Positions 7,684 through 53,530 of a DNA stretch of 64,000 bases are shown piece after piece. The translations under genes and the position numbers were made by a program. Origin of the DNA: Alphaproteobacteria bacterium (GTDB taxonomy: Bacteria; Pseudomonadota; Alphaproteobacteria; Rs-D84); NCBI GenBank assembly GCA_009783855.1, contig WRCO01000002.1, forward strand, positions 25,038 to 89,037, written 5' to 3'. How positions within the stretch are numbered: position 1 is the stretch's first letter; each line of letters opens with the position of its first letter. Under the pieces are notes generated by a model that saw nothing but the letters and a program-made list of their open reading frames with translations, did no database searches and was not told the DNA's origin.

Positions 7684-7767
7684 AGGTGGCTGGTGCTGGT
7701 GATTCGTGGGTTTGGAAATTATTACAACTTCACGTCACCAGCCGCCACTGAACGAAGTGAGCGAAAG
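7684..7767. repeat. family A palindromic repeat (GGTGGYTGGTG / CACCAGCC arms); its 3' end gaacgaagtgagcgaaagATG abuts a start codon
   Basis: aggtggctggtgctggtgattcgtgg ... cacgtcaccagccgccact. The same tail (aacgaagtgagtagaaATG) precedes infB at 19745-19757. Confidence 0.65.
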
Positions 7768-7947: not shown

Positions 7948-7959
7948 GGTTGGCAGACG

Positions 7960-8190: not shown

Positions 8191-8200
8191 GGAACAGACA

Positions 8201-8443: not shown

Positions 8444-8454
8444 GAAGTATAAAT

Positions 8455-13561: not shown

Positions 13562-13580
13562 CTGACAGCTAACAACCGGG
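13553..13580. repeat. family B repeat (ctgacaactgacagctaacaac type)
   Basis: One of at least 7 copies of a gttgtcagttgttagctgttag-like element. Others are at 16570-16600, 16643-16677, 31931-31966, 32709-32744, 34998-35030 and 35188-35222. Confidence 0.65.
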
Positions 13581-14531: not shown

Positions 14532-14570
14532 TGTTGTTATCTGTTATCTGTGCTCTGCGCGCAAAGCGCG

Positions 14571-16640: not shown

Positions 16641-16642
16641 AT

Positions 16643-16677
16643 TCAGTTGTTAGTCGTTAGCTGTTAATTGTTAATTC
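16643..16677. repeat. family B repeat between lptG and lptD
   Basis: attcagttgttagtcgttagctgttaattgttaattcg. Confidence 0.65.
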
Positions 16678-17749: not shown

Positions 17750-17872
17750 TCGTGGTTGGTGGCCCGTGCCGGTGGTTCGTGTCCGAGGTCGTATTCTAGT
17801 ACAATGGAGAATAATATCAAATTATTTTTATAAATCCGAACCACCGGCCGCCAACACGAACACGAATCACGA
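17750..17872. repeat. family A palindromic repeat (long copy) abutting the lptG start codon
   Basis: cgtggttggtggcccgtgccggtggttcgtg ... ccgaaccaccggccgccaacacgaacacgaatcacg. The arms are reverse complements with an AT-rich centre. Confidence 0.7.
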
Positions 17873-17982
17873 TTTTCCTTGCATTTCCCCGATTCGTAGT
17901 TAATAATCCCCGTGTTCTTTAATAAATTAATTAGAGAGCGGGTTCGTAAAAGAGCCCGCTCTTTTAAGTAAGATGGTGGTTG

Positions 17983-18083
17983 GTGTTGGCGGTTGGTGAT
18001 TCGTGTTTTGGATTTTTGGGCAATAACATCCATAAATTCACGTCACAAGCCATCGGCGCGAACCACCGACCACGAAACGACTA
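17983..18083. repeat. family A palindromic repeat upstream of nusA
   Basis: gatggtggttggtgttggcggttggtgattcgtg ... cgcgaaccaccgaccacgaaacg. It ends 15 nt before the nusA GTG start and supplies the aaggag RBS context. Confidence 0.7.
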
Positions 18084-19670: not shown

Positions 19671-19757
19671 TTCGTGTTGGCGGCTTGTGCTGGTGGCTGG
19701 TATATGCCACGAATCACCAGCACAAGCCACCAGTCACAACGAACGAAGTGAGTAGAA
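19671..19757. repeat. family A palindromic repeat between nusA and infB
   Basis: ttcgtgttggcggcttgtgctggtggctgg ... ccacgaatcaccagcacaagccaccagtcac, followed by aacgaagtgagtagaaATG (infB start). Confidence 0.7.
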
Positions 19758-22144: not shown

Positions 22145-22510
22145 ATGGCAAAATTTGCAATAAAATTCGAAACACCATATCGGTTGGCCTATGAGCATAA
22201 GATAGCCAGCATAGCGGGCAGCGATGTTACATGGGAATTTGATTTTGCCGAAAAATGGGCCGCAAAAATATTGAAAGAAATGAACGCGGGTAAAAAGATG
22301 ACGAAGCAGCTTGTCAACAAAATGGCCAAACTGGTATATCCAACTTTTGGCGCCAATGCCCCCGCGTTACACCCAATGGCCGAACAAGTGCTGGTCAAAT
22401 ATTGGGTCCACGGTTCCCAGTTTGGCGAGATTGTCGGGATGCAAAAGCTCGACATAATGAAGAAACGCCATTACGCCGAAATGACAGAATTAAGGCTTGC
22501 AAGATACTGA
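22145..22510 (+). CDS. hypothetical protein (121 aa), not RbfA
   Basis: Occupies the position where rbfA usually follows infB, but shows no RbfA KH-fold motifs. A terminator follows. Confidence 0.35.
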   Translation: MAKFAIKFETPYRLAYEHKIASIAGSDVTWEFDFAEKWAAKILKEMNAGKKMTKQLVNKMAKLVYPTFGANAPALHPMAEQVLVKYWVHGSQFGEIVGMQKLDIMKKRHYAEMTELRLARY

Positions 22511-22535
22511 AAATCCGCCGAAAGGCGGATTTTAG
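22510..22535. terminator. rho-independent terminator (aaatccgccgaaaggcggattt), identical to the 1622 copy
   Basis: Perfect hairpin plus a T-run. Confidence 0.7.
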
Positions 22536-24467: not shown

Positions 24468-24471
24468 TAGA

Positions 24472-24497
24472 AAATCCGCCAAACGGCGGATTTTTTA
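24472..24497. terminator. bidirectional terminator (aaaatccgccaaacggcggatttttt) shared by the LpoB-like gene and der
   Basis: Hairpin plus T-run. Overlaps the der stop. Confidence 0.65.
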
Positions 24498-27149: not shown

Positions 27150-28181
27150 TTAAAAACTTGCGCGGATGCCGGCCGTTATAAATGGCGAAAAGTCGCCGGC
27201 GTTTATAACCGCGCCGCCGGATGTGAAGACGCTGAAATACTGGTCTATTTTATACCGCAATGACGCAAGCCCCGTATGGGTAAGATAGGAATTCGGATGT
27301 TCGGGATTGTTGTCCCAGATGCCGACGGCGGAAAATATATAAGAAAGCGACCCGGACCAGTTAAGGAAATCGTAGGACGCGCCGATGCCCCCCTGCAGGC
27401 CGTCCGACGGAGCGGTTATCGGGTTGTTGTCGTAAATACCGCGCGCGGTTATGCCAAAGTTCCAACTTCTGTGCTGTATATTCGTGCCCAGCGCCAATTG
27501 ATACCGGGAATCGGCCGTGACGTTCGGCGCGTACGAATCCGCGGACAGGTTGTTCGGGCGGTCTATATACCCAGCGCCAATTGATACCGAATATTTCGTC
27601 CGGCCGTGCGGCATCCGGTATCTTATGCCGATGTCGGTTGCCGAATCGAAATTCGTATTGAACGGCGATACGGACATTCCGACCTGTACCGGTCTTGTCG
27701 GGACGGTCACGGTTGTCGCGCGGAACGCGTATCTTGTCCCGGTTGCGACCGGGTTGGCGATGACATTCCGGGCGCCGGTCATGTCATAGAAAAGCGGAGT
27801 GCTGTTCGCGCGAAGCGACCCGACATCGGGAAGTCCCACGCCAAGTTTCGCCGCTACGGATTCGGTCCATCCCAATTCCACGCGGCCGTACGGGCTTTCC
27901 GTAAAGATAAATATGTCGTTATAGAAATATTCGCGGTCGACTCCGGTCCGTTCAACAGAGTATACCGCGCCAAGCGTCCAGCCGTTCCATACCGCGTAAT
28001 TGGCCTGGGCCCTTATGCGATAATCGTACACCGTATATTCCGGCATACCCGCGCCGCCCGTCGCATGCCCCGAAAGGCGAAGCCCGACGCGGTTGCGGTT
28101 ATAAGTGAACGCATCGGCGCTTTGCACACAAAGCGCTGAAAGGCATAAGGCATAAGGCATAAGGCGTAAGAATTTTTTCAT
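27150..28181 (-). CDS. outer-membrane beta-barrel porin-like protein
   Basis: Signal MKKFLRLMPYALCLSALCVQSADA. C-terminal ...GIRASF. The signal peptide region contains a (ccttatg)x3 heptamer tract. Confidence 0.55.
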   Translation of the reverse strand: MKKFLRLMPYALCLSALCVQSADAFTYNRNRVGLRLSGHATGGAGMPEYTVYDYRIRAQANYAVWNGWTLGAVYSVERTGVDREYFYNDIFIFTESPYGRVELGWTESVAAKLGVGLPDVGSLRANSTPLFYDMTGARNVIANPVATGTRYAFRATTVTVPTRPVQVGMSVSPFNTNFDSATDIGIRYRMPHGRTKYSVSIGAGYIDRPNNLSADSYAPNVTADSRYQLALGTNIQHRSWNFGITARGIYDNNPITAPSDGLQGGIGASYDFLNWSGSLSYIFSAVGIWDNNPEHPNSYLTHTGLASLRYKIDQYFSVFTSGGAVINAGDFSPFITAGIRASF

Positions 28182-29971: not shown

Positions 29972-30066
29972 AGAGCATAGGGCACAGATAAGTGTTGAAA
30001 TTAAAAAGATATTTTACGGATATTAAAAAAGCATCTATGCTCTATGCTCTATGCTCTATGCTCTTG
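29972..30066 (+). promoter_or_regulatory. conserved 5' cassette E1 plus (CTATGCT)x4 heptamer tract preceding the bamB-like gene
   Basis: cacagataagtgttgaaattaaaaagatattttacggatattaaaaaagcatct followed by atgctctatgctctatgctctatgctc. Near-identical copies are at 38930-39003 and 53440-53530; a diverged copy is at 40925-41040. Confidence 0.7.
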
Positions 30067-30765: not shown

Positions 30766-30861
30766 CGCCGGCCACCAGCGCGAGCCGCCAACACCATTTT
30801 TTCCTTGCCCCCAGGCGATAAGTTTTCTAGAATCATCATCAAGAGAAAACGGGAGAGACAA

Positions 30862-31905: not shown

Positions 31906-31932
31906 AAAAATCCGCCGCAAGGCGGTTTTTTT
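31905..31932. terminator. bidirectional terminator (aaaaaatccgccgcaaggcggttttttt)
   Basis: Hairpin plus T-runs on both sides. Confidence 0.65.
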
Positions 31933-31934
31933 AA

Positions 31935-32708
31935 CTAACAACTTTTAGCTGTCAGTTGTGTTAACTCTTTCCCGGTCAATTCTCTGAACTTTCCAGATTC
32001 CAGATTCCCAAGTTCTATCGGGCCGTAAGATTCCCGATTCAGCTTGGATACAGGGAGTCCAATATAATCAAACGCGATGCGGATTTCGTTTTTCTTGCCC
32101 TCGGTCAATTTGATTTTTACAAGCAATGGATAACGCGACAGCAATTCAATCTCCATGGGTGCGTATTTCACGCCGTCTATTGTCGCGCCGCGGCGAAGCG
32201 AATCAAACACGGAATCGTCCGCCGAAAGGGGCGATAAGAATTCACGAAGACGGCGGACGCCGTTCGGAGATTTTGCCGCCCCCGGGTCGGGTCGAAGCTT
32301 TGCGGTGTATACGCGGACGATTTTGGATTCCGGCAATGTCAGGCGCCTTGCAATATCGCCGTCGTTGGTAAGCAGCAGCAGTCCCGTCGTTTTGTAATCC
32401 AGCCGCCCGACATATTTCAAACCGCGCATATTTTTTGGCAGACAGTCGTAAATTGTTTTACGTCCGTCGGGGTCGCGCAGCGTCGTCATTGTGTTTGCCG
32501 GCTTGTTGAATGCGATTATTTGTGTTCGGGTTCGTGTGCGGACGGGTTCGTTATTTATGGCGACGACGTCATTCGGTTCGACAAAAAAGACGGGTGTTGT
32601 AACCGGTTTGCCGTTTACGGAAACGGAACCGTTTTCGATAAGACGCTCGGCCTCGCGCCGCGATGCGCCGCCAGAGTCAGAAATAAATTTAGCAAGTCTT
32701 GTTTTCAT
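31935..32708 (-). CDS. pseudouridine synthase RsuA/RluB family (S4 domain + PSU catalytic domain)
   Basis: S4 motif RLAKFISDSGGASRREAERLIENGSVSVNG. Catalytic GRLDYKTTGLLLLTNDG. The C-terminal tail encodes a family D repeat (NLESGKFRELT). Confidence 0.8.
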   Translation of the reverse strand: MKTRLAKFISDSGGASRREAERLIENGSVSVNGKPVTTPVFFVEPNDVVAINNEPVRTRTRTQIIAFNKPANTMTTLRDPDGRKTIYDCLPKNMRGLKYVGRLDYKTTGLLLLTNDGDIARRLTLPESKIVRVYTAKLRPDPGAAKSPNGVRRLREFLSPLSADDSVFDSLRRGATIDGVKYAPMEIELLSRYPLLVKIKLTEGKKNEIRIAFDYIGLPVSKLNRESYGPIELGNLESGKFRELTGKELTQLTAKSC

Positions 32709-32744
32709 AATAACAGTTGTTAGCTGTTAGTTGTTAGTTTTTAA
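32709..32744. repeat. family B repeat at the 3' flank of the T4CP gene
   Basis: cagttgttagctgttagttgttagttttt. Confidence 0.65.
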
Positions 32745-34980
32745 CTTCCCTTGTCTCCCCCGTCCCGTAATCGTATACTTTCGGCACGCCGGGGTACCCC
32801 ATTGTCGCGTGGTGCGACGGGACAAGAAATTCGGGCAACGCCGCCGCGCGCGGAATATCGGTAAGTTTGAACAAATCTTTTTCTTTGCCCGGCCAGACCC
32901 ACGGGACGTCCGCCTCAATCGGGCGATGCGGATAGCCCTGTAAAATCACAAGAAGTTTATCCGAATCAAGTTTCATTATGTCCATCGGACTGTAAAGCAG
33001 CGCCGCTTCTTTTTTGTCGTCTTTTACTTCGCCGGTTTTGTCGTCCGTCTTTTCTTCAATCTTTTTCTGGTATCCTATCATCCTGCTGAACTTGTCCGCA
33101 GTGTCGTAACTGTTTTGACGGAACACAAGTTTCACCGCTGTTGTCGATATTATGGTTTCGGCGGCGTCCGCACCGTATTTGTCCCGGATTTGGGCAATAT
33201 CCTGACCGATTATAAGATACGAAACCTGTTGTCCGCGGCCAAGGTCGGGCCCCTGAATCACAGCCTGCATCTTTTGCATTTTCGGCATTTCGTCCAGCAC
33301 GAACAAGACCGGCGTCGGCCCCAGTTTTTGACCGGCATGCGTATCTTCCGGCTTGTTGGTAAGAAGAAACGCCGACATAAGTTCGATGAATATCGCGCTT
33401 ATCGGATTCAATGCCTCCGCATCGACCATGTTTATGGAAAGGTAAACGGTAACCGGCTCCCACTTTCCCGTCTTTTTGTTTTTGATTCCGCGCAAATCGG
33501 AAAAATGAAAATCGGAATGCGACGTGCGGTTGCGGACGGCCGCGTTTCGGAAAATGTTAAGCCCCGACAATGCCGTCGACATAATCGACCCGCGTTCCTT
33601 GTCCGGCGTGTTTGCAAGCTGTGTAAGTTCTTGGATGGACCGGTGCGCGTATCCGTATTGGCGCGCCTCTTCGACCGCGTCGTGGAACAAATCCTTCATC
33701 GGGTCGGCCATCATCACCATCTGGTCGCCTTGTTTGCGCCTGTCTTCCAATTCTTCGGCGATTCTTATCTGGTTCGTGGTAAGCCAGTCAAGAACCATGG
33801 AAAGCGACGCCTCTTTGCCAACCCATGCGGCCGGTATATTCGCCCAGGTTCCGACGGGAACATAATTCGCGGCCGACAAAGCGCCCGTGGAAAGCATATG
33901 CCGCGCCGCCGCCGCGTTCGGGTCCCGCATCATCGCATACCGTTCGTCAAGAAGGACTCTGTCGGTCTGGTCGAATGTTCCGGAATCAAGGCGCGATTTG
34001 AAATAATCGTTCCATTTTGCGCGCTCTACCTTTGACACAATAAATTGTAAGAATCCGGTAAGCGCCGCGCGGCCCGTAGTGACCCAGTGCGGGTCGGCGG
34101 ACGACGTCGCCTTGTCCGCGACAAGCGTCGCGCAAATAGAGTCTATATAAAGGTCGCGTTTTTCTTGAACAAACGGCACGTGTTCGGGCGACAACGGATT
34201 CCACGACGGATAATATATGCCGCGTTCCGGGTCGTCTTGACCCGCCCAGTTTATGATGAACACCGGACCGATGCCCGCGCGGTACCCGCTTGTCAAAGCG
34301 TCCAATTCAGGTTTGGGGTCGTTGACAATCATGGACACCTTATCGCATTTGAATATGGTCGGCATAACTATGCCGCGGGATTTACCGGACCCCGGCGGCG
34401 CGACGCAAAGCGCGGACAATGTTTCGTCCAGCATAAGGAATTTCTTTTTGAATTTGCCAAGGACGATTATAAAACCGCCGAACAGGCCTTCTTTGTTCTT
34501 TTTGTCGCGGCCCATGCCCTTTACATCATTTTCGTTCGCCTTGCGGGAAGAATCGTCCGCCCACCAGTTCGTGCCATGCGGATTAAATTCGCCAAGGAAC
34601 GTCGGAATCGTAAGCAAATGATACGCGATTATTGCAAACAAGGGCGTAATAACCGGTAAATCGGGGCGAAGGACCGCGCGGACAAGCCATGCCGGAATCT
34701 CTGCAAAAATGCGCAGACCGAACGTATGCAGAATCTGGTCGAAATAAACATGAAGCCACGTGATTGTCGCCGGGCTCCACCCGTACCGCCATATATGCTC
34801 GATTGCAAAGGAAAGTCCGAACGCGGCGATGGATGCAAACCAGGCAAGGAAAAGATAACGGTATTTCCAGAACACAAGGCGCATGTGCGTCCGTTTGTCG
34901 CCCTTGTACGCGTCGGACGAAAAGATGCCAAGGCCCTTGCCTTTACCGCTTACAGATAAGATGTTGAACTTTGCAACCAT
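32734..34980 (-). CDS. type IV secretion coupling protein (VirD4/TraG/TrwB family ATPase), orphan
   Basis: 748 aa. N-terminal TM pair. Walker A LCVAPPGSGKSRGIVMPT (compare VirD4/TraG xAPTRSGKGVGxVIPN). Walker B PVLFVLDEMPKM. No other T4SS genes are adjacent. Confidence 0.6.
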   Translation of the reverse strand: MVAKFNILSVSGKGKGLGIFSSDAYKGDKRTHMRLVFWKYRYLFLAWFASIAAFGLSFAIEHIWRYGWSPATITWLHVYFDQILHTFGLRIFAEIPAWLVRAVLRPDLPVITPLFAIIAYHLLTIPTFLGEFNPHGTNWWADDSSRKANENDVKGMGRDKKNKEGLFGGFIIVLGKFKKKFLMLDETLSALCVAPPGSGKSRGIVMPTIFKCDKVSMIVNDPKPELDALTSGYRAGIGPVFIINWAGQDDPERGIYYPSWNPLSPEHVPFVQEKRDLYIDSICATLVADKATSSADPHWVTTGRAALTGFLQFIVSKVERAKWNDYFKSRLDSGTFDQTDRVLLDERYAMMRDPNAAAARHMLSTGALSAANYVPVGTWANIPAAWVGKEASLSMVLDWLTTNQIRIAEELEDRRKQGDQMVMMADPMKDLFHDAVEEARQYGYAHRSIQELTQLANTPDKERGSIMSTALSGLNIFRNAAVRNRTSHSDFHFSDLRGIKNKKTGKWEPVTVYLSINMVDAEALNPISAIFIELMSAFLLTNKPEDTHAGQKLGPTPVLFVLDEMPKMQKMQAVIQGPDLGRGQQVSYLIIGQDIAQIRDKYGADAAETIISTTAVKLVFRQNSYDTADKFSRMIGYQKKIEEKTDDKTGEVKDDKKEAALLYSPMDIMKLDSDKLLVILQGYPHRPIEADVPWVWPGKEKDLFKLTDIPRAAALPEFLVPSHHATMGYPGVPKVYDYGTGETREVKN

Positions 34981-35033
34981 AGTGGTATTATAACATAATA
35001 ACTGACAACTGACAACTAACAGCTAACAACTAG
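34981..35033. repeat. family B repeat at the 5' flank of the T4CP gene
   Basis: aactgacaactgacaactaacagctaacaac. Confidence 0.65.
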
Positions 35034-35035: not shown

Positions 35036-35722
35036 ATGAAAAATATACCAAGGATTTATATAAATGAAAATTTGGAAGTTGGGCGAAGTTTCCCGGTGTC
35101 CAGGGACATCGCGCATTATTTGACCCGTGTTATGCGAACGGACAGATGTTTGGTGTTCAATTATGGAAAAGAGTTCAAGGCTGAGCTTTCAGTTGTCAGC
35201 TGTTCGTTGTTAGTTGTCAGTCCTACTGGGCGGCCCGACCCGTCGAACAATTTGACGCTTGCGTTCGCGCCGGTAAAACAGGCGCGGATGGAGGAAATGC
35301 TTTCCATGGCGACCCAGATGGGCGTAAAAAGGCTTCAGCCCGTAATCACTGCCTTTGTAAATGAACATCATCCGAAATGGGAAAGGATTAAAAAAATTGT
35401 CATAGAGGCGGCGGAGCAATCCGGAAGAAACAGCGTGCCGGAATTGGCAGAGCCGCAAAAATTTACAGAATTTCTGCAGGGGGTAAAAGACTTGGTTTTT
35501 GCGGACGAACGGGCCGCGAGCCCCCGGTCCTTTCCAGATTCCGGGCTTGCGTTGCACGCGCCCCGGAATGACACAATCGTTTTGATAGGGTCAGAGGGCG
35601 GATTTTCAGACGCGGAATTTGATGCGCTGGACAAAGCGGGCGCGACTGGCATAAACCTTGGGCCGACAATTCTTCGGGCGGAGGTCGCTGCGGTGGTGGC
35701 GATTGCGAAAGTTGTTGGTTAA
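35036..35722 (+). CDS. rsmE: 16S rRNA (uracil1498-N3)-methyltransferase RsmE, with an in-frame family B repeat insertion
   Basis: N-terminus MKNIPRIYINENLEVG. SPOUT C-terminal IVLIGSEGGFSDAEFDALDKAGATGINLGPTILRAE. Residues ELSVVSCSLLVVSPTG are encoded by repeat 35188-35222. Confidence 0.8.
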   Translation: MKNIPRIYINENLEVGRSFPVSRDIAHYLTRVMRTDRCLVFNYGKEFKAELSVVSCSLLVVSPTGRPDPSNNLTLAFAPVKQARMEEMLSMATQMGVKRLQPVITAFVNEHHPKWERIKKIVIEAAEQSGRNSVPELAEPQKFTEFLQGVKDLVFADERAASPRSFPDSGLALHAPRNDTIVLIGSEGGFSDAEFDALDKAGATGINLGPTILRAEVAAVVAIAKVVG

Positions 35723-36195: not shown

Positions 36196-37644
36196 ATGGA
36201 GAGAACGACAAACCAAAGCAGCGGAAATTTCATGTTACAGGCCTTGCTTGCGCTTGCGCTTGTCATCGCGTTTATGCCCATGCTTGTGCGGAAAATGGCG
36301 CGCTCGGGGTTCGATGCGGAAATGAACGCGGCCATGCAACAGGTTAATTCCGCGGTGCCGGCCGTGCGCGCGTTCGGGCGGGATAATTACGATTCGCTTC
36401 AATTCGGCGTCCAGATATACGAAGGACGGGATTTCCAAGACGCTTTGGAACCGTACGGGCTTCCCATCGGGTTTGTGCCGCGGACGCCCTTGGGACAGAA
36501 CATCGTCATGATTACAACGCGGAACGACAGCGAGACCATCGCATGGCTTCGTATTATGGGCGGGCGCGCGACCGGGATAGAAAAGGCCGAACTTGCTTTG
36601 CGCATCGGATTCTGGGCGGCGGATGTGGACGGCAACAGGCTTTCCGGCGCGACCGGCGGATGGGACAAGGATATGACGGAATTCGGATACAGGCCGGCAA
36701 GCGGCGCCATATACGTCCGCGTGCCGCTTTCGCATGAATTTTCGGACCTTCTTTCCACCACCGCGCGAAATATCGAAGCCAACCGGATGCACGTAAACCT
36801 TAACATGGGCGGCCGCGATGTGCGCGCCGCGCGCGACATAACCGCACGCGAAGGGAATTTCCGTTCGGTGCTTTCCGGCGATTTCATCCTTTCCGGGGCG
36901 GAAGACGGCCGGCGCCAAAGAAACAGATTTTCCGAACTTAACATACGCCGCGCTCATTTTCAATCAAGGGACGGTTCGAACGCGCTTAACATATCGCGCG
37001 GCACGATGAATGCCCGCTCCGTGGTTGCGCCGACCGTATCCAGATATGGCGACCCGGGTAATCTTACAAGCGAATCCGTATCCGTGCACAATTTTGCGAT
37101 GGCGGCCGGACGCACGGGGTTTATGGGCCCCACCGTATGGGAAGTGCGCGGCGATGCGATATTAAGCAATGTGACGCTTAACACCGAACGCGTGGAGGTC
37201 GGCGGATATATAAACGCCACGCGCGGCCAGGACGTGTTCGTGGATGAAGACGAGCTTACCTTTAATCAAAAATCCGGAATAGAAACCAATATCGTATCGG
37301 CGACCGCGCTTACCCTGCGCGACCAGACTTCGAACGTTCTGCTTGAAGGAGGGTCGGGACCGGTAATCATCGACATCCGGCCGGCGGGGGTTTCCGTGTT
37401 GCCCGACGTGCTTTTGGCCGGGATAAACAACGACGGCATCGCGGCGCTTGCAAGCCCGTCGGACGAATCAGACATAATGACCGCATGCAGAGGCATAATC
37501 GGCGGCCTTCCCGGAGTGAACGCAAGGTACGAGCAGAATTCGCTGGCGCAGAATATAATATGCCGGTTTGTGTTTTGGCAAAGGCTTGAACAAAGAATAG
37601 ACAAGATGCAATGCATACTTGATAGAGGGGAGGAGAATTGTTAA
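36196..37644 (+). CDS. TadG-like large pseudopilin-family protein (prepilin-type N-terminus G|NFMLQALLALALV; beta-helix-like C-terminal repeats)
   Basis: N-terminus QSSGNFMLQALLALALVIAFMPML resembles the TadE/G-like (RGNxAxxFAL) class III signal. Shares the paralog motif MHVNLNMGGRDVRAARDITA with the next two genes. Confidence 0.45.
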   Translation: MERTTNQSSGNFMLQALLALALVIAFMPMLVRKMARSGFDAEMNAAMQQVNSAVPAVRAFGRDNYDSLQFGVQIYEGRDFQDALEPYGLPIGFVPRTPLGQNIVMITTRNDSETIAWLRIMGGRATGIEKAELALRIGFWAADVDGNRLSGATGGWDKDMTEFGYRPASGAIYVRVPLSHEFSDLLSTTARNIEANRMHVNLNMGGRDVRAARDITAREGNFRSVLSGDFILSGAEDGRRQRNRFSELNIRRAHFQSRDGSNALNISRGTMNARSVVAPTVSRYGDPGNLTSESVSVHNFAMAAGRTGFMGPTVWEVRGDAILSNVTLNTERVEVGGYINATRGQDVFVDEDELTFNQKSGIETNIVSATALTLRDQTSNVLLEGGSGPVIIDIRPAGVSVLPDVLLAGINNDGIAALASPSDESDIMTACRGIIGGLPGVNARYEQNSLAQNIICRFVFWQRLEQRIDKMQCILDRGEENC

Positions 37645-38923
37645 GGCGTATATGAACCTGATAAAAATGATTTTCACCGGAACAGACAGCGCGCCCCGCC
37701 TTACGTCTTGCGGCGACGAACGCGGCGCAAGTCTTCTTGAAACGCTTCTTGCCATCGGGCTTGTCGCGGCGATGGCGCCTTTTGCGTACAACCGCGTGCT
37801 TGACGTAAGCCGCGATATAGCCGACGTCGCCGCCGCGCGGCGCATTCATAATTGGAAGGAAGCCGCCAAGGGATTTATCCGCGCAAACCAGATGGATTGG
37901 GAGGACGATGCGATTTTTGAGCTTTCCGAACGCGACCTTGTCGCGATACGGGCGCCGGACGAAGGAAAACAGGCCATCTTTCCATACGCCGCGTTTATTG
38001 AAAAATTCAGTCATGCGGGCGGCACGACCATAGAGGCGTATATTCTGTTCCCCGGCGAATTCGACGGAATCCGTATGCACCGCATCGCGCACCATCTTGG
38101 CGCGGACGCCGCCGTCGCGGGCGACGCGCAAATCGCATTTTCCGCAAGCGGCGGCTGGAGCATAGAATCGGACATATTGGAAGAAAATGATATTGTGTTC
38201 CGCGTGTCCGTAAATATGCCGATAGACGATTCATACGCGTTCATGCACCGGGTGGATACCGGCGACGAAAGGCTTAATACCATGGAGCGTGACCTGTCCA
38301 TGTCGCGCAACGACATAGTCCATGCGGGCGCGGTTAACGCAGGTCTTCTTGATTCCAAAATGGTCGGTGCATGGTTTGCGGGCGGCGGTGCATTTTCCGC
38401 GGACGAAGCCGTATTCCCCCAAGGCGCCAATGTCGACGGCGGCGGAGTATCGTTCGCGGCGGTCCGCGTTGTGGGGGATATTATCGGTTTTCGTAATATA
38501 CATGCGGGCATATTCGCGGGCGGCGGCGGGGCCTTGAACTGGTCCGCTCAGGGGAATATAATCGCCGACCGGGTGAATATAGCCGAAGCGGTTCACGTTG
38601 GAAGAAACATGACCGTAAGGTCTCCAAACGTCCGAACGGTTTCCGGATTCCTTGGCATAAGCGTGCATTCTCTGGCGACCCCGTTTGTATCCACCGAAGA
38701 ATTGCGGTTTGCGGACGGCTTTGGGCTTTCAATTTCCAACGAACTTTCGGCAAGCTTTACCGACGGGCCGTTAAGGCTTGGCAACTGGGCGTTTCCGCGG
38801 ACACCTGCGCCAAGATTTGCGGACCTTGTCCTTACACAAGGAGGCGCAGTCAAAGGCGGCGTGCCAACAGGATTTGAAAACATAATGAGCAGGAATTGGA
38901 AGGCTTTAAGGCCAAGGGAATAA
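37619..38923 (+). CDS. TadE/G-like pseudopilin-family protein 2 (G|ASLLETLLAIGLVAAMAPF, Glu at +5)
   Basis: Prepilin peptidase-type site ERG|ASLLE. Gly-rich beta-helix-like C-terminal half (GANVDGGGVSFAAVRVVGDIIGFRNIHAGIFAGGGGALNW). Start alternatives at 37652 or 37667. Confidence 0.45.
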   Translation: MIEGRRIVKAYMNLIKMIFTGTDSAPRLTSCGDERGASLLETLLAIGLVAAMAPFAYNRVLDVSRDIADVAAARRIHNWKEAAKGFIRANQMDWEDDAIFELSERDLVAIRAPDEGKQAIFPYAAFIEKFSHAGGTTIEAYILFPGEFDGIRMHRIAHHLGADAAVAGDAQIAFSASGGWSIESDILEENDIVFRVSVNMPIDDSYAFMHRVDTGDERLNTMERDLSMSRNDIVHAGAVNAGLLDSKMVGAWFAGGGAFSADEAVFPQGANVDGGGVSFAAVRVVGDIIGFRNIHAGIFAGGGGALNWSAQGNIIADRVNIAEAVHVGRNMTVRSPNVRTVSGFLGISVHSLATPFVSTEELRFADGFGLSISNELSASFTDGPLRLGNWAFPRTPAPRFADLVLTQGGAVKGGVPTGFENIMSRNWKALRPRE

Positions 38924-38929
38924 AAATAG

Positions 38930-39003
38930 AGCAAAGACAATAGAGCGCAGATAAATGTTGAGATTAAAAAGATATTTTACGGATATTAAAAAAGCATCTA
39001 TGC
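38930..39003 (+). promoter_or_regulatory. conserved 5' cassette E2 (no heptamer expansion)
   Basis: cgcagataaatgttgagattaaaaagatattttacggatattaaaaaagcatctatgct. Confidence 0.7.
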
Positions 39004-40307
39004 TTTTGCCTGTGCGAACGCGTTCTCGCAGCGAGCGCGGCGCGACGCTTGTCGAACTTCTTCTTGCGCTGGCGGTGGCGGCGGCCATGCTTCCATTTAT
39101 AATAAGACAGGCCGACGTGCGGACCCGCCGCGCGGAAAATATAAAAGCCGCCGCCGACCTTGGCAAAGTCAAATCCGCGCTTGAAAGATATATGGAAGCG
39201 AACAGGCACGAGCTTTTCTCGACCATAAGCCGGAACGTCGTGCGCGTATCGATTTCCGATTTGGAAGAACACGGGCTTGATACCGCCAATCTTGACAAGT
39301 CGGAACAGTTCCAGATGCGCGTCGTTAAAAGCGCGGACCGGGGCGGGCGGTCGTTTCTTCAGGGCGTCGTCATCATGGACACGGAAGGCATCGCGCCGAT
39401 AAGGACGCGCGAAATCGCGGCAATCGCCGGCGGCGGCGCGGGATTCGCCGACGATAACATAACATACGGCGCATTCGGAACATGGCGCGTAAGCGCGAAC
39501 GTATGGAACGCGCGGTTTACCGACAGGTCGCTTCTTGAAGTCACGGATGCCATACGGTCGGGCGAAGAATTCCTGCGCCGCATAGTGTACGAAGACGGCG
39601 GCGCGATGATGCATTCGCCGCTTGCCCTTGGCGGGCACGACATAGTCAACGCGCGGTCGGTGTTCGCGGAATCCGCGCGCTTTGCCGAATTCGTGAATTT
39701 TACGAACGCATCGGCAAGCCGCCTTGTCATGGAAGGCAAACCGACACTTGACGGCAATGTGACCATATCCGGAGAATCAACGGTTTCGGGCGTGCTGAGT
39801 TCCGATTCACGAAGCATGGAAGTCGGCCGCATGACGGTATCCGGCACTTCGCGGTTCGGCACGGTTAATGCAAACGAATTATGGGCGGGCGATTTGGAGC
39901 TTGCCGGATTTTCGGTCCAAATTGACGAGCGTCGCCCCGCCACGCTGTCGGTCGGCCGGTCGATTGACATGACCGGCGGACGCGTTGTCTCCATGCTTGT
40001 CGCGGTGGGACACGGGGGAAGCACTACGCCGCGGCTTTTCGTAAAAGACCGGGTTGAAGACGCAAGAAATCCCGAATATTTTTGGGATGTCGCGACGGGT
40101 GAAGCCATGCTTTCCGACATATTTATCCCCGCGCTTTCCAATATGGCGCGGACCGCCATAGGCCGCGAACAGCCGGGAACGGAATCTCATCGCATCCTGT
40201 CCCAGGTTGCGAACAACGCCAACGCGACGGTCGCGGATTATATGCGCGCGCTTGCCGAAATAGAACGCCGCGTCACGGCAAGGTTTGATGCGTTGAATTT
40301 GGAATAA
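38955..40307 (+). CDS. TadE/G-like pseudopilin-family protein 3 (SERG|ATLVELLLALAVAAAMLPF)
   Basis: Class III signal with Glu at +5. Beta-helix-like repeats (GNVTISGESTVSGVLSS...MTVSGTSRFGTV). The probable true start is the ATG at 39000 (MLLPVRTRSRSERG leader). Confidence 0.45.
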   Translation: MLRLKRYFTDIKKASMLLPVRTRSRSERGATLVELLLALAVAAAMLPFIIRQADVRTRRAENIKAAADLGKVKSALERYMEANRHELFSTISRNVVRVSISDLEEHGLDTANLDKSEQFQMRVVKSADRGGRSFLQGVVIMDTEGIAPIRTREIAAIAGGGAGFADDNITYGAFGTWRVSANVWNARFTDRSLLEVTDAIRSGEEFLRRIVYEDGGAMMHSPLALGGHDIVNARSVFAESARFAEFVNFTNASASRLVMEGKPTLDGNVTISGESTVSGVLSSDSRSMEVGRMTVSGTSRFGTVNANELWAGDLELAGFSVQIDERRPATLSVGRSIDMTGGRVVSMLVAVGHGGSTTPRLFVKDRVEDARNPEYFWDVATGEAMLSDIFIPALSNMARTAIGREQPGTESHRILSQVANNANATVADYMRALAEIERRVTARFDALNLE

Positions 40308-40310
40308 TTT

Positions 40311-40426
40311 GGCGGTTGGTGGCCCGTGCCGGTGGTTCGTGGTAAAATAAAAATTTGATATTATCGCTTATTGTAATAAAATGCGAATCACGAAGGCGAG
40401 TCACCAGCCGCCAACACGGACCACCA
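40311..40426. repeat. family A palindromic repeat ending at the start codon of the zinc-ribbon protein
   Basis: ggcggttggtggcccgtgccggtggttcgtgg ... cgagtcaccagccgccaacacggaccaccaATG. Confidence 0.7.
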
Positions 40427-40924
40427 ATGAAAATAACATGCCCATTTTGCAAAATCGAATACGCGGCGAAAATCCCAAAGGGACGGCGCGCGGAATGCAT
40501 CGTGTGCGGCCATGTATGGGCGCCGGACGGCGCGCGCGGAAGGAACAGGATTCTTATGTGGCTTTTGATGGCGGCTTTCGCGCTTTTGGTGGCGGTGATT
40601 GCGATTACCATGACGACAAGGTATGCCCCGGCAAATAAGACAGAAGAAACAATCGTCGTCGAAATGACCGGCTTTCGGCGGACTGCCGCCGCGGACGGCG
40701 CGCGCATTGTCATATCCGGAAGGGTCAAGAATATGTCCGGAAGGGTTTACGGAATTCCCGACATCATGCTTGTCCTGCGGGACGATGCGGGTGAAATTGT
40801 ATTTACCCAAAGAATCATGCCGCCCGCGCCGGTTCTGGATATTGGAGAGGTTGCGAAATTTTCCCACACCCTTTCCGGCGTTCCGGAAAATGCCAGAGCG
40901 GCCCGGGCAGAGTTTGTAAGATAG
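40427..40924 (+). CDS. zinc-ribbon (MJ0042-type CxxC) + TM + DUF3426-like domain protein
   Basis: MKITCPFCKIEYAAKIPKGRRAECIVCGHVW zinc ribbon, a single TM, then a ~100 aa beta-rich domain. This architecture matches DUF3426 proteins. Confidence 0.5.
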   Translation: MKITCPFCKIEYAAKIPKGRRAECIVCGHVWAPDGARGRNRILMWLLMAAFALLVAVIAITMTTRYAPANKTEETIVVEMTGFRRTAAADGARIVISGRVKNMSGRVYGIPDIMLVLRDDAGEIVFTQRIMPPAPVLDIGEVAKFSHTLSGVPENARAARAEFVR

Positions 40925-41040
40925 CACATAGAACACAGATAATAGAACATAGATAGGAGAACGAACAAATGTTGAGATTCAAAAACAATTTTACAGGTCT
41001 TTGGAAAGCATCTGTGCTCTATGTTCTGTGCTCGATGCTC
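40925..41040 (+). promoter_or_regulatory. diverged conserved 5' cassette E3 with degenerate heptamer tract
   Basis: acagataatagaacatagataggagaacgaacaaatgttgagattcaaaaacaattttacaggtctttggaaagcatctgtgctctatgttctgtgctcgatgctc. Confidence 0.55.
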
Positions 41041-41493
41041 TTGGTCTCGGCGCGAGCCGCGCCGACATGTCCGCCGTGCGTATGCCCGTCCATACCGCCG
41101 TCGATTTTTTCGACAAGCACGGATTGGGAAGCGGTGACGGGGATGCGCCTTTCCGAATTTATGGTTTCGTTCGGTCGCGATGGAAGCATCGGCAATATCG
41201 GGTGGGAGATATATTTCCTTGACGGATTTCCATGCTATGGCCAATCGGAGACCGCGCGCATGTGGGTAAGTCCGTCGCGCCATTACGCAATCGACGGCGG
41301 CGCCGACGCGCGCGGCCGCATCACGTGCCTTTATGCGCCGAAAACCGTAAAGCTTGCATGGCGCGAGGCAAGGCGCGACGCGGCGCAGGCGCGCACACGC
41401 GGGATGGCCGTTTGCGAAGTGGAGCACAGCGGACGGAACATCACAATCCGATTGGACAAATGCGAAAGGACGGATTGGGGTGATTTGCGATAA
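40969..41493 (+). CDS. hypothetical secreted Cys-rich protein (174 aa)
   Basis: Signal peptide after the cassette leader. APTCPPCVCPSIPP motif. 8 Cys. Confidence 0.4.
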   Translation: MLRFKNNFTGLWKASVLYVLCSMLLVSARAAPTCPPCVCPSIPPSIFSTSTDWEAVTGMRLSEFMVSFGRDGSIGNIGWEIYFLDGFPCYGQSETARMWVSPSRHYAIDGGADARGRITCLYAPKTVKLAWREARRDAAQARTRGMAVCEVEHSGRNITIRLDKCERTDWGDLR

Positions 41494-41512
41494 CAACCGT
41501 AAGGCGTAAGGC

Positions 41513-42478
41513 GTGAAGCGTGAGGAATTTGTTTTCATCGTTGAAGAACAGGACGCGGGTTTGCGTGTCGATAAATTTATCGCGTCCAGATTGACCGAAT
41601 ATTCTCGTTCTGAAATCCAAAAATTTCAAATAACGAAATCTGGCGCTGCAACAAAGCTTTCCGAAAAGGTAAAGCTTGGTGAAAAATATGAAGTTGCCGT
41701 TTTAATAAATATGCCTTGTGCCTTGTGTCCTATGCCTTCTTCGAAAAAAATATCCTTGGATATTTTATTCGAAGACGACGACATCATCGTTGTCAACAAG
41801 CCGCGCGGAATCGCAATGTATCCGGGCGCGGGACGCGACAGCGGAACATTGGTGCAAAGCGTTCTGGCGCATACGAATCTGTCGTCCATCGGCGCGGACG
41901 GCATGCGGCCCGGCGTTGTTCACCGCATCGACAAAGACACGTCCGGCGTTGTGATTTTTGCAAAAACGGATTCGGCGCACCGTGCGCTTGTCACGGTTTT
42001 TTCCGAACACAATCTGGTGCGGAAATATATCGCGTTTATTTGGGGCGTGCCGAACTGGCTTTCCGCGGATATTTCCGGAAACATAGGGCGGTCGACGCGC
42101 AACCGCCAAAAAATGACTATGGTCAAAACCGGCGGAAAGCCCGCGCACACAAGCGCCGAGGCTATAAACGTCTGGCCGCGCGCGAATATTTCGGAATTGC
42201 GGTGCACTTTGGACACCGGCCGCACGCATCAGATTCGCGTCCATCTTGCCGCGCATGGTTTTCCCGTTTTGTGCGACCCGCTTTACGGGCGGGGCGGGGC
42301 GCGGCTGGGCAGTGTCAAGGACCCGGAATTATTGGAATTTCTGCGTGAAAACCGCGGTCAGATGCTTCATGCCGAAGTATTGGAATTAACGCATCCGATA
42401 ACCGGCGCGCCATGCAAATTCCGCGCTAAATTGCCGGGGGACATGAGTGCGTTGAAAGAGATTCTTAACGAAAAGTGA
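41513..42478 (+). CDS. rluD: pseudouridine synthase RluD/RluC family, with an in-frame family C heptamer repeat insertion
   Basis: S4-like N-terminus. Catalytic HRIDKDTSGVVIFAKT. GTG start. Residues NMPCALCPMPSS are encoded by atgccttgtgccttgtgtcctatgcctt (41711-41740). Confidence 0.85.
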   Translation: MKREEFVFIVEEQDAGLRVDKFIASRLTEYSRSEIQKFQITKSGAATKLSEKVKLGEKYEVAVLINMPCALCPMPSSKKISLDILFEDDDIIVVNKPRGIAMYPGAGRDSGTLVQSVLAHTNLSSIGADGMRPGVVHRIDKDTSGVVIFAKTDSAHRALVTVFSEHNLVRKYIAFIWGVPNWLSADISGNIGRSTRNRQKMTMVKTGGKPAHTSAEAINVWPRANISELRCTLDTGRTHQIRVHLAAHGFPVLCDPLYGRGGARLGSVKDPELLEFLRENRGQMLHAEVLELTHPITGAPCKFRAKLPGDMSALKEILNEK

Positions 42479-45541: not shown

Positions 45542-45570
45542 CCCCGTCATCCCGGCGAAGGCCGGGACCC
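45542..45570. repeat. family D inverted repeat, left arm (ccccgtcatcccggcgaaggccgggaccc), flanking the GIY-YIG gene
   Basis: Reverse-complementary to 45968-45993. Related copies at 60341-60368. Confidence 0.7.
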
Positions 45571-45577
45571 ACTGCCT

Positions 45578-45946
45578 TCAGGCTGTCTGTATATTTATCT
45601 CATCCGGCTTATATTCCGGCACAGGTTCAGCATAGGCATGTATGCCCGCGCCGCGAATTTCATCCCAAAGGTCTATCCAATACGGATTCTTGCTTATTAT
45701 CAAACGCAATTTCCAATTGCGTTTCCATTCTTTTAACTGTCTTTCCCGCCGAACCATTAATTCCATATCTTCAAAAAATTCATAATATACGATTTTATCA
45801 ACACCGTATTTCGTGGTAAACCCGCCGTAGAATTTTTCCTTGTGCTGTGCGACGCGGGCAATCAAATCGGAACTTGACCCGATGTACAGCGTTCCCATTT
45901 TATCGCTTGCTATAATATATACAAATCCGGCTTTCTTATTCAGCAT
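45578..45946 (-). CDS. GIY-YIG nuclease superfamily protein (small stand-alone type)
   Basis: FVYIIASDKMGTLYIGSSSDLIARVAQHKEK...YGVDKIVYYEFFEDMELMVRRERQLKEW gives the GIY...YIG motif plus conserved R and E. Confidence 0.7.
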   Translation of the reverse strand: MLNKKAGFVYIIASDKMGTLYIGSSSDLIARVAQHKEKFYGGFTTKYGVDKIVYYEFFEDMELMVRRERQLKEWKRNWKLRLIISKNPYWIDLWDEIRGAGIHAYAEPVPEYKPDEINIQTA

Positions 45947-45967
45947 CAGAGAATGTCGTTCCGCAAT

Positions 45968-45993
45968 GGTTCCCGGCCTTCGCCGGGATGACG
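45968..45993. repeat. family D inverted repeat, right arm (ggttcccggccttcgccgggatgacg)
   Basis: Pairs with 45542-45570 across the GIY-YIG gene. Confidence 0.7.
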
Positions 45994-46034: not shown

Positions 46035-46706
46035 TTACAACTTCACAATTCCATTCGTTGCGAACAGCTGTCCGTTTTCTTCGTATATTTTTCCGCCGGA
46101 TTCAAGCACCATCAATTCTCCGGCGCAAAGCTCCGCGTAATTCAAAGGGTCGCTTATAAACGCGTCAAACTTTCCCGTTGCAACAAACGCCAAATCAAGC
46201 GCCGCACAGCCGGTCGCACGCTTCGCGCCGGTATTCGGTATCCGGTATTCGGTATTCGAATAACCGATGGTAAGGTCCGCCGGATCGGACAGTTTCGACA
46301 CGCGGTGGCGGTTGGAATGGAACGCACTGAAAATAAAACATCCCGCGTCTTTTTCCGCGTAATACAATTTATCCGCAATCGGCGCGTATGTAAGGCCTGC
46401 GCGCGCCTCGCCGTTCACGCGAAGCGCAAGCGTTATCGCAAAATGTGAATTGCCGCGCACGAAATTCTCGGCGCCCGAAAACGCCAAAACAAATTCGGAA
46501 ATCCCGTCGCCGTCCGTCGACATGTTCGGAGTCAATACGCCCGCAGTCGGCCGCACAAGCGTCAAATCCGACAGAATCATTTGTTCGATTCTTTGTTCGG
46601 CCCTGCGCACAAAATCGCGCGCGCCGGGCAATGATTGCTGAAGCTGTTCCACCTCTCCGAAATCGCGGCGGATACCCGTCGCCGTCCGCGACAATGCCGC
46701 AAACAT
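46035..46706 (-). pseudogene. inositol monophosphatase (SuhB) family, degenerate and N-terminally truncated
   Basis: C-terminal AALDLAFVATGKFDAFI motif is present. The catalytic DPxDGT is replaced by FSGAENF. A family D 52-bp repeat lies upstream (46756-46808). Confidence 0.4.
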
Positions 46707-47254: not shown

Positions 47255-47797
47255 TTAATACCCGCCGATACAGCCAAGATATGAATTGCCCGTGCCCTCG
47301 ACAAGTGATATGAATTTCTTTTTATTCCGACCGGAAAAAAGTCCCAAAATAGTCCCCGCATCCGTCGCAAGCATATCAAGCGACAACGCAACGCCCGTAT
47401 TCATCTTTTTGAAAAACGAACTTGACGGATGGATTTCGGCCGTAAATAAACGTGAGCCGTCGCGCTTGTGCGCGCCGAGGCTTTGGGCGCGGGATGATTT
47501 TCCTATGACCATTAAATGACAATCCGCGGAAAGGATGATTTTGCCCGTGACTTTTACGTCTTCGTTGCCAAGAAGGCCGCCCCACCAGCCGACGGAATCC
47601 ACAAACACTGGGATATAAAGTTCCGCATCGGGGTTTGTTGCGAAAAAATCCGAAATATCCGGCTCTGTATGAATGACGCGCGGCATCTGGCCGGTCGCTG
47701 CGAAAATCTCTTTGCGCGCGGCGGCATAGAGCGAATCGCCCCGTGTACGCTTCGTGCCGTAAAAAAGTACCGGGTATGCAGTCGATTCGGGCTTCAT
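47255..47797 (-). CDS. hypothetical protein (180 aa)
   Basis: Intact ORF. No motif recognised. Confidence 0.3.
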   Translation of the reverse strand: MKPESTAYPVLFYGTKRTRGDSLYAAARKEIFAATGQMPRVIHTEPDISDFFATNPDAELYIPVFVDSVGWWGGLLGNEDVKVTGKIILSADCHLMVIGKSSRAQSLGAHKRDGSRLFTAEIHPSSSFFKKMNTGVALSLDMLATDAGTILGLFSGRNKKKFISLVEGTGNSYLGCIGGY

Positions 47798-47816: not shown

Positions 47817-48036
47817 ATTAGTGGCTGGTGGCTAGTGATTAGTGGTTGGTGGTTTGTGGCTTGTGCCGGTGACTGGTACGGTTGTCTGATATATTAGACA
47901 ATCATTAATTAACGCATAAATTAAAGGCTGTCCACTATAGTGGACAGCCTTTAATTACAGGCCATTAATACGAACCACCGGCACGAGTCACGAGCACGAA
48001 TCGCCAGCACAAGCCACAAGCACAAGTCACCGGCCA
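47817..48036. repeat. largest family A composite palindromic repeat (~220 bp) with central perfect palindrome ggctgtccactatagtggacagcc
   Basis: Left arm tggtggctagtgattagtggttggtggtttgtggcttgtgccggtgactgg. Right arm cgaaccaccggcacgagtcacgagcacgaatcgccagcacaagccacaagcacaagtcaccgg. Confidence 0.7.
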
Positions 48037-48040
48037 TCAA

Positions 48041-49366: not shown

Positions 49367-49413
49367 AAATCCCCCGGAATTTGCTTTGCATTATACCATA
49401 AATCTTTCCTATA

Positions 49414-50718: not shown

Positions 50719-50720
50719 TA

Positions 50721-53434: not shown

Positions 53435-53439
53435 TAGAA

Positions 53440-53530
53440 CATGGATGGAGCACAGATAAGTGTCGAGATTAAAAAGATATTTTACGGATATTAAAAAAGC
53501 ATCTATGCTCTGTGCTCTGTGCTCTGTGCT
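53440..53530 (+). promoter_or_regulatory. conserved 5' cassette E4 plus (CTGTGCT)x4 heptamer tract
   Basis: cacagataagtgtcgagattaaaaagatattttacggatattaaaaaagcatctatgctctgtgctctgtgctctgtgctc. Confidence 0.7.

Follow-up and report, generated by a model that had tools for sequence, protein, structure and literature searches.

The rvh type IV secretion system (T4SS) of Rickettsiales is a chromosomal, vertically inherited system of the P type, and its genes form islets among the housekeeping genes of a reduced alphaproteobacterial genome (PMC2653234). Five hydrophobic VirB6 paralogues and this 'archipelago' of islets are its hallmarks (Gillespie et al. 2009, PMC2653234). Among type IV coupling proteins (T4CPs), TrwB of R388 and Cagbeta/Cag5 of H. 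pylori possess a P-loop nucleotide-binding domain into which an all-alpha domain is inserted, and full-length TrwB also carries an N-terminal membrane anchor. Here we analysed a VirD4/TraG/TrwB-type coupling ATPase gene of an Alphaproteobacteria bacterium from the GTDB order Rs-D84 that shares these features. The gene is located on a stretch of 64,000 nucleotides (contig WRCO01000002.1 of assembly GCA_009783855.1, positions 25,038 to 89,037, forward strand), hereafter the window (Table 1).

Rs-D84 bacteria and 'Candidatus Enterousia' occur widely in the guts of humans, livestock, birds and termites and presumably live at the expense of other cells. Rs-D84 genomes are smaller than 1 Mb and miss most biosynthetic pathways, and an obligately symbiotic or parasitic life has been proposed for these bacteria (PMC12306168). 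In this study, the only genomic one on Rs-D84 that we found, no secretion system was reported, just 'hypothetical membrane-bound proteins'. We consider it likely that a VirD4-type T4CP is encoded here and belongs to a T4SS with chromosomal, vertically inherited genes that are scattered across the small Rs-D84 genomes.

The ORF encodes a type IV coupling protein

A first-pass annotation of this DNA had proposed an intact open reading frame (ORF) of 748 aa, with N-terminal transmembrane helices and T4CP-like Walker motifs, and all these elements were recovered. The ORF is uninterrupted and starts with ATG. Three Pfam families matched above their thresholds: T4SS-DNA_transf (PF02534, E 2.2e-52, 178.9 bits against a cut-off of 20.1), TraG-D_C (PF12696, E 2.1e-20, 73.4 bits against 22) and TrwB_AAD_bind (PF10412, E 7.2e-17, 61.8 bits against 20.5). 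The NCBIfam matches were T4CP models exclusively. In an alignment of 52 sequences, A194, P195, P196, G197, G199 and K200 of Walker A are invariant, as are F560, D563, E564, M565, P566, K567, M568 and Q569 of the Walker B region. Hydropathy places two hydrophobic helices at about residues 40-62 and 108-126, and a conserved loop (EHxWRYGWSPAT) lies between these two anchor helices in the alignment. The AlphaFold2 (AF2) model, built on 52 homologues with a predicted local distance difference test score (pLDDT) of 78.5, has N-terminal helices at residues 27-66, 70-85, 89-104 and 108-123.

Foldseek searches with this model returned Cagbeta (8dol, E 7.5e-18) as the best PDB match, followed by TrwB (1e9r/1e9s, E 2e-12, TM-score 0.70-0.76 normalised to the target) and DotL (E 1e-6). 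HerA (E 5e-7) and VirB4 (E 9e-6) were present among the weaker matches. Since the FtsK-HerA superfamily includes the T4CPs, such matches could also point to another P-loop translocase of FtsK/HerA type that is no T4CP. However, three T4CP-specific Pfam families exceeded their thresholds, the top solved structures were all T4CPs, leading by 5-11 orders of magnitude in E-value, and the best plasmid homologues are annotated T4CPs within VirB operons. Because Pfam and AF2/Foldseek favour T4CPs, the FtsK/HerA reading is refuted, and we assign it a negligible probability. The ORF product is a T4CP anchored in the membrane, and its catalytic motifs are intact, as the first-pass annotation had suggested.

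Compared to TrwB and Cagbeta, the Rs-D84 protein has the same domain plan, but the identity amounts to merely 12-16%. In addition, its helical insert comprises about 190 residues and is far longer than theirs, and both the periplasmic loop and the C-terminal motif are specific to the lineage. The conserved C-terminal tail is a possible contact site for a partner or adaptor.

The closest annotated relatives are plasmid VirD4 genes with 30-36% identity over 52-91% of the query, for example those of Erythrobacter aureus (NZ_CP031358.1) and Microvirga sp. VF16 (pMVF16-3). Their domain set is the same as that of the Rs-D84 T4CP, which is longer than the megaplasmid VirD4 proteins in the all-alpha domain and in the C-terminal tail. 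While the megaplasmid virD4 genes close complete VirB2-B11 operons, on elements that also encode a DnaB-like helicase, Rad52 and SSB, the Rs-D84 gene has no such neighbours. The Erythrobacter locus (L085) adds an upstream MobA/MobL relaxase, TopB and a primase, which are likewise absent beside the Rs-D84 T4CP gene.

An ancient gene with a fixed neighbour

We scanned one genome per species and found the T4CP encoded in about 400 matching stretches of Rs-D84 genomes, the 80 best of which were retrieved; labels from L003 to L089 denote loci retrieved for comparison. These 80 loci derive from termite-gut metagenome-assembled genomes (MAGs), 'Candidatus Enterousia' and related bins, and closed genomes of 0.72 and 0.96 Mb are among them. 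We found more than 1800 T4CP homologues; the best 120 listed align along their entire length with 61-76% identity, and their listed sources are all uncultured gut Alphaproteobacteria. A full-length match (from query residue 1 or 2 to about 735-748) was confirmed by tblastn in 80 of 80 loci.

In the window, the T4CP gene lies alone between rluB and rsmE, and Pfam and NCBIfam matches of both neighbours support this earlier observation. None of the 80 loci has a T4SS gene adjacent to it. Divergently oriented rsmE is found about 55 bp from the T4CP gene in 79 of the 80 loci, whereas rluB occupies the far side of the T4CP gene in the termite-gut clade only. Outside this clade the order is a TPR protein, rluB, rsmE and then the T4CP gene on the opposite strand, and the downstream genes of other species are housekeeping genes (fabZ, lpxD, skp, ompA, dnaX, nth, ileS, gidA). 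No integrase, transposase or recombinase was found among the neighbouring genes scanned, which were housekeeping genes. The GC content of the T4CP gene (0.51-0.53) is similar to that of the remainder of the window. Its median identity to orthologues was 62%, compared to 67% for Der, 65% for RpoH, 51.5% for rsmE, 50% for rluB and 43% for BamB.

A promoter-like site with 11 of 12 matches (TTGTCA-17 nt-TG-TATAAT) was predicted directly upstream of the T4CP gene, and TATAAT occurs at the equivalent position in three comparison loci (L003, L004 and L006). Since 6 nt separate the predicted -10 hexamer from the ATG, the T4CP mRNA may be leaderless. The predicted -35 hexamer falls within the heptamer array on the rsmE side (see below). 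Downstream, a spacer of 25 nt separates T4CP and rluB, and no terminator-like site was found between them; judged from this arrangement, both genes probably form one transcription unit. A bidirectional terminator-like hairpin of repeat family D3 closes this unit. Near-identical hairpins of this kind (AAAATCCGCCGAAAGGCGGATTTT) stand between convergent genes at 1622-1646, 22510-22534, 24471-24495 and 31907-31931.

The first-pass annotation had also considered that the gene might be a relic. A decaying, now functionless remnant of an ancient conjugative system would agree with a T4CP gene that stands alone, away from other T4SS genes, and with the ongoing genome reduction in Rs-D84 (PMC12306168). 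However, the gene is full length in all 80 loci, and its median identity resembles that of essential GTPases and sigma factors and is well above that of its neighbours. In addition, the catalytic motifs and long stretches of the protein are invariant, the promoter is near consensus, and the VirB4 and VirB6-like genes described below are conserved too. That a 2.2-kb gene is kept in a genome of less than 1 Mb also argues for a function. We therefore regard a relic as highly improbable. Given the fixed position beside rsmE, the ordinary GC content and a conservation like that of Der and RpoH, the T4CP gene is neither a recent acquisition nor a relic, and these comparisons identify it as an ancient core gene that is passed on vertically and kept by strong purifying selection.

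Three contigs (L014, L021 and L064) and one protein record (P0047) are deposited as Muribaculaceae, Bacteroides fragilis and Lachnospiraceae despite a full Rs-D84 syntenic block, which on the three contigs consists of the TPR protein, rluB, rsmE and the T4CP gene. The contigs under these names are probably mis-binned or mislabelled MAG records.

Candidate components of a proposed scattered secretion system

A T4CP that stands alone had been taken to imply a T4SS encoded elsewhere, with an rvh-like scattered organisation, and our results fit this expectation: VirB3 and VirB4 are encoded at a separate locus in relatives, and five VirB6-like genes lie in the window itself. We used VirB proteins of the two closest plasmid T4SSs as queries, in tblastn searches against the window and 84 Rs-D84 loci and in phmmer searches against 17 selected window proteins. 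VirB4 was detected in the Rs-D84 locus L048 (E 1e-123), with VirB3 just before it. The Rs-D84 VirB4 matches TIGR00929 (VirB4_CagE) with E 6.5e-107, and the adjacent VirB3 reaches 30.3 bits with the Pfam VirB3 model (cut-off 23.9). This pair is present in L048 (1701-4415), L087 and L089. Its context is YchF, SufBD, VirB3, VirB4 and an uncharacterised protein of 190-205 aa, amid housekeeping genes. The VirB4 family is conserved with 77-96% identity among the best 120 matches, and those homologues that bear source names are all labelled 'hypothetical protein'. Several VirB4-family genes and T4CP homologues come from contigs of matching length, so that they may share contigs, although this is no proof. 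In an Enterousia genome, a small integrated element (L089, 14251-21894) is located just downstream of VirB3-VirB4 and encodes Bro-N, a tyrosine integrase, an AAA_15 ATPase, an autotransporter, Rep and HTH_17.

The VirB6-like block, located 13 kb from the T4CP gene, encodes five tandem polytopic proteins of 399-504 aa with about 5-9 predicted transmembrane segments each, which are candidate T4SS channel subunits. They are weak mutual paralogues (hhalign 46-98%). An exhaustive profile search with the family of the third gene yielded 152 relatives, and 24 of the 72 remote full-length ones matched the Pfam family TrbL/VirB6 (best E 1.8e-8). DUF4017 was the sole other family seen more than once among these 72 relatives (two members, E about 0.008). 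The top four PDB matches of a VirB6-like protein in Foldseek were TrwI chains. A small protein of 180 aa, for which no family was found with Pfam, NCBIfam or hhalign, is always attached to the block, and all six genes (a 172-180-aa protein and five VirB6-like proteins) are kept together in an Enterousia genome and in another genome of the termite clade. VirB6-like genes of this kind carry no family assignment in public records. In Pfam and NCBIfam searches, nothing significant was obtained for the 180-aa protein, the five polytopic proteins, a 960-aa protein or the pilin-like trio described below.

We propose that two N-terminal helices would anchor the T4CP in the inner membrane, while its cytoplasmic P-loop domain, all-alpha domain and C-terminal tail would bind substrates, which may be protein effectors and/or DNA. 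Upon ATP hydrolysis, the T4CP would hand these substrates to an inner-membrane complex of VirB3/VirB4 and the five VirB6-like proteins. We infer that the T4CP, VirB3-VirB4 and the VirB6-like proteins would form one machine. Since Rs-D84 bacteria lack most biosynthesis, its role would most likely be the interaction with a partner or host cell.

Several observations weigh against this proposal. First, no NCBIfam T4CP model that the protein matches, be it an equivalog (VirD4 PRK13897/PRK13850, TraD, TraG-Ti, CD1115) or a subfamily (TraG PRK13880/PRK13876), gives a score as high as its curated cut-off. The best score, with the CD1115 family, was 138 bits against a cut-off of 250, and the remaining models were far below theirs; the Rs-D84 T4CP is a separate, uncurated T4CP subfamily. 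Second, the VirB6 assignment is transitive, by profile and fold, and none of the five proteins matches Pfam directly. Solved VirB6 was not matched when profiles A2 and A3 were compared with PDB sequences, and among the ten closest remote relatives only one individually matched TrbL, below the gathering threshold. Third, VirB3-VirB4 are known from relatives and not from the 64 kb of the window's own organism. Fourth, neither VirB2, VirB8-B11 nor a relaxase was detected by tblastn and phmmer in 1.7 Mb of Rs-D84 DNA, a fraction of each genome only. Of the plasmid queries, VirB4 alone found a genuine match in the window and the 84 loci, and VirB2, B5, B6, B8, B9, B10 and B11 did not. Thus, of the two genes that the first-pass annotation had recommended to locate, virB4 was found in relatives, while virB11 was not found in these 1.7 Mb. 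Three weak 'VirB11' matches proved to be a GspE/PilB-type pilus ATPase, the only T2SSE ATPase found. The small proteins beside VirB4 and beside the VirB6-like block gave no hhalign signal with plasmid VirB families.

Like rvh, Rs-D84 has a conserved VirD4 and a VirB3-VirB4 pair, along with hydrophobic VirB6-like proteins that form a tandem set of five paralogues. However, virD4 of Rickettsia is arrayed with virB8-virB11, whereas the Rs-D84 T4CP gene stands alone beside rsmE. Likewise, the virB6 paralogues of Rickettsia follow virB3-virB4, whereas in Rs-D84 the VirB6-like block and VirB3-VirB4 lie apart. The likeness is one of layout, and the 1.7 Mb of Rs-D84 DNA yielded no VirB8-B11.

Beside rsmE and a DUF4167 gene, the window encodes three large pilin-like proteins of 423-470 aa with class III signal sequences (36196-40307). 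Further pilus genes were found in relatives (L050 16660-21368, L087 19163-22415, L007 15234-15743). Together, the trio and the relatives' genes resemble a type IVb pilus of the R64 kind that carries PilV-like adhesins.

These genes bear on an alternative, namely that the T4CP was recruited to a non-canonical machine: an R64-like type IVb pilus, or DNA uptake or export with ComEC, with VirB3/VirB4/VirB6 as a minimal inner-membrane module that lacks a VirB7/9/10 outer-membrane core. The pilin-like proteins, with weak N_methyl and Shufflon_N matches, lie 1.2-5 kb from the T4CP gene, and relatives encode PAP_PilO, a GspE/PilB-type ATPase, T2SSF and a PilS-like pilin. In addition, ComEC is located just beyond the right edge of the window on the source contig, with its C-terminal part inside the window, and VirB8-B11 were not found in the searched Rs-D84 DNA. 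However, this DNA represents a small part of any one genome, and the pilin block is not consistently located beside the T4CP gene across species. No characterised T4CP is known to work without a VirB4-containing T4SS, which also counts against a pilus or ComEC machine. We therefore consider this alternative unlikely and prefer a T4SS with scattered genes.

A broader picture can be offered as a rather speculative suggestion: the whole order Rs-D84 may depend on a highly scattered T4SS (a stand-alone VirD4, VirB3-VirB4 and five VirB6-like proteins), maybe without VirB7/9/10 core and VirB11, and maybe in cooperation with a type IVb pilus of the R64 kind and its large PilV-like adhesins, for attachment to other cells and macromolecule exchange. 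If true, this would represent either an independent parallel to rvh or its extracellular, gut-dwelling sister. A lineage-wide scattered T4SS appears to be undescribed in the literature searched. The T4CP core gene, VirB3-VirB4 and the VirB6-like block extend the pattern of a scattered T4SS with proliferated VirB6 beyond Rickettsiales, and they are testable candidate machinery for the dependence of Rs-D84 on other cells.

Heptamer arrays around the T4CP gene

Both flanks of the T4CP gene carry the same repeat, termed family B, in line with the earlier observation. Its two arms (32715-32739 and 35007-35031) are inverted, 25 nt long and 96% complementary, and are 2267 nt apart. Both flanks are tandem arrays with a 7-nt period. 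Using the pattern ACAACTRACARCTRACAAC with up to three mismatches allowed, we obtained 18 matches at 8 places, while shuffles gave 0.04. Four copies lie within 3.3 kb. A third copy had been reported as inserted into rsmE; the copy is present, but it is no insertion, as RsmE has the same length at residues 50-63 as 15 orthologues. A fourth had been placed beyond rluB and is probably the partial copy that we located within the 3' end of rluB.

The flanking arrays precede the starts of rluB and rsmE by 21-22 nt, in sense orientation, and they are inverted relative to each other because these two genes are on opposite strands. In one relative (L003) the rsmE start is preceded by (AAGGCAT)n; in another locus (L006), (GGATAAC)n precedes both rsmE and the T4CP gene, and a third (L004) has nothing. 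Arrays are missing from the orthologous spacers of most other, non-termite loci. Since the arrays stand in sense orientation upstream of the neighbours' starts, and the spacers of relatives carry other units or none, they are not markers of the T4CP gene. As leader elements of rluB and rsmE, they belong to a genome-wide class.

This bears on the suggestion that the repeats delimit, or accompanied, the acquisition of the gene, that is, on a recent cassette or mobile-element remnant with ends marked by family B. The same 25-nt sequence on both flanks, the cluster of four copies in 3.3 kb and an rluB side that differs between the termite-gut clade and most other species are what one might expect of such an element. 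However, the T4CP gene adjoins rsmE in 79 of 80 loci, there is no GC shift, and neither integrase nor transposase is encoded among the scanned neighbours. Furthermore, the repeats are inverted and not direct, each precedes the start of a neighbour in sense orientation, and the window contains 26 heptamer arrays compared to 0.6 expected. Finally, the heptamers of orthologous spacers are of unrelated sequence (L003, L006) or missing altogether (L004 and most non-termite loci). We therefore judge a recent cassette to be very improbable, and the arrays should not be read as mobile-element boundaries. The more modest earlier view that such repeats simply accumulate in the spacers fits our data. Inversion of the T4CP gene by the inverted pair was ruled out, since the gene stays divergent from rsmE across species. 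Relocation of rluB via family B arrays was unsupported, as other members of the termite clade share the arrangement with different heptamers.

The array in the rsmE leader is complementary to the copy within rsmE, so that a long-range stem of about 32 bp can span the start and the first 50 codons. Its minimum free energy (MFE) was -79.2 kcal/mol (z -4.93), and 0 of 200 shuffles folded as well. According to this folding model, the stem could be a translational control element.

Across the 64 kb, we found 26 arrays with period 7, while Markov shuffles gave 0.6. A comparable excess was absent at periods 5 and 8-11, and period 6 showed a smaller one (13 versus 2.4). The arrays consist of about 3-5 copies of more than 15 different units and are often arranged as inverted pairs with 40-100 bp between the partners. 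They sit just upstream of starts or within signal-peptide coding regions; the array midpoint was at most 80 nt from a start codon in 15 of 22 cases (17% expected). Such arrays abound chiefly in some of the loci, most termite-gut loci included (1.1 per kb in L003 and 1.4 per kb in L006), and are nearly absent from most others.

TAACTGA heptamer repeats upstream of starts in Beggiatoaceae, cyanobacteria and Bacteroidetes have been proposed as sites of post-transcriptional regulation (MacGregor 2015, PMC4679880). Like the arrays described here, these TAACTGA/STRR repeats have a tandem 7-nt period, 3-6 copies and a position mostly just upstream of starts (PMC4679880). In contrast, the Rs-D84 arrays occur in an alphaproteobacterium and have many units (family B is ACAACTR, not TAACTGA). 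Unlike TAACTGA repeats, they often form inverted pairs and are also found in signal-peptide coding regions.

Table 1. Positions of the coupling protein gene, its parts, its neighbours and further features in the window
Feature	Position	Strand	Basis
T4CP gene (VirD4/TraG/TrwB-type coupling ATPase), 748 aa	32734-34980	-	ORF, Pfam, Foldseek
Walker A APPGSGKS, residues 194-201	34378-34401	-	motif and conservation
Walker B VLFVLDEM, residues 558-565	33286-33309	-	motif and conservation
N-terminal membrane anchor, two hydrophobic helices	34603-34863	-	hydropathy, AF2, conservation
Enlarged all-alpha domain inserted in nucleotide-binding domain, residues ~297-485	33526-34092	-	AF2, all helical
Conserved C-terminal tail PLPEFL(I/V)PxHHAxMGY	32737-32910	-	alignment
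rluB-like pseudouridine synthase gene, directly downstream of T4CP	31935-32708	-	Pfam PseudoU_synth_2 and S4
rsmE, divergent neighbour of T4CP	35036-35722	+	Pfam Methyltrans_RNA, NCBIfam RsmE
Promoter-like site for T4CP	34987-35015	-	predicted
Bidirectional terminator-like hairpin, repeat family D3	31912-31925	.	sequence
Family B array (ACAACTR)n, rsmE sense-strand leader, ends 3 nt before rsmE ATG	34996-35033	+	
Family B array (ACAACTR)n, rluB sense-strand leader, overlaps T4CP stop codon	32709-32744	-	
Family B copy inside rsmE, residues 50-63, variable loop	35185-35224	-	
Partial family B copy, rluB 3' end, 3 mismatches	31941-31959	-	
Five tandem VirB6/TrbL-like polytopic membrane proteins (candidate T4SS channel subunits)	48041-54932	mixed	profile and fold
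VirB6-like gene 1	48041-49366	-	
VirB6-like gene 2	49414-50718	+	
VirB6-like gene 3	50721-51920	+	
VirB6-like gene 4	51920-53434	+	
VirB6-like gene 5	53505-54932	+	
Small conserved 180-aa protein attached to VirB6-like block	47255-47797	-	synteny
Heptamer array examples	4896-5015, 13553-13576, 14446-14557, 16571-16676, 28138-28171, 30032-30066, 41498-41523, 46228-46259, 47833-48030, 53501-53535, 57977-58009, 60269-60299		
89-nt cassette copies	29977-30065, 38940-39028, 40954-41042, 53445-53533		
GGTG/CCAC-rich repeat sites	7685-7709, 17749-18005, 19663-19737, 30768-30805, 40309-40428, 47821-48037, 58554-58596		

Other features of the window

Four genes that are unrelated otherwise share a 5' end, a cassette of 89 nt with 73-92% identity between copies; they are the genes of a BamB-like lipoprotein, of a pilin-like protein, of a 174-aa protein and of the fifth VirB6-like protein. 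The cassette encodes MLKLKRYFTDIKKASML..., after which a (TCTATGC)n heptamer array stands in the region of the signal peptide. By analogy, this layout recalls Opa-type slipped-strand phase variation. The heptamer copy number did not differ between the window and ENA contigs from two samples, the sequences being 100% identical, and there was thus no evidence of slippage.

Intergenic spacers also contain a second family of dispersed repeats, in which GGTG/CCAC is abundant (GTGGCTGGTGCTGGTG and its complement) and which often form inverted pairs. Rfam searches of the window revealed two tRNAs and nothing else. At 45545-45993, an inverted repeat of 31 nt (94% complementary) surrounds an ORF of 122 aa (45578-45946, minus strand), the N-terminus of which, by eye, looks like the GIY-YIG nuclease motif (GFVYIIAS...GTLYIGSSSDL). 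This region may be a small selfish element. Four small tandem genes of 76-120 aa with similar motifs follow pnp (7699-8817). Each product has one central or C-terminal hydrophobic helix and no family match, and the genes appear to be a lineage-specific paralogous set.

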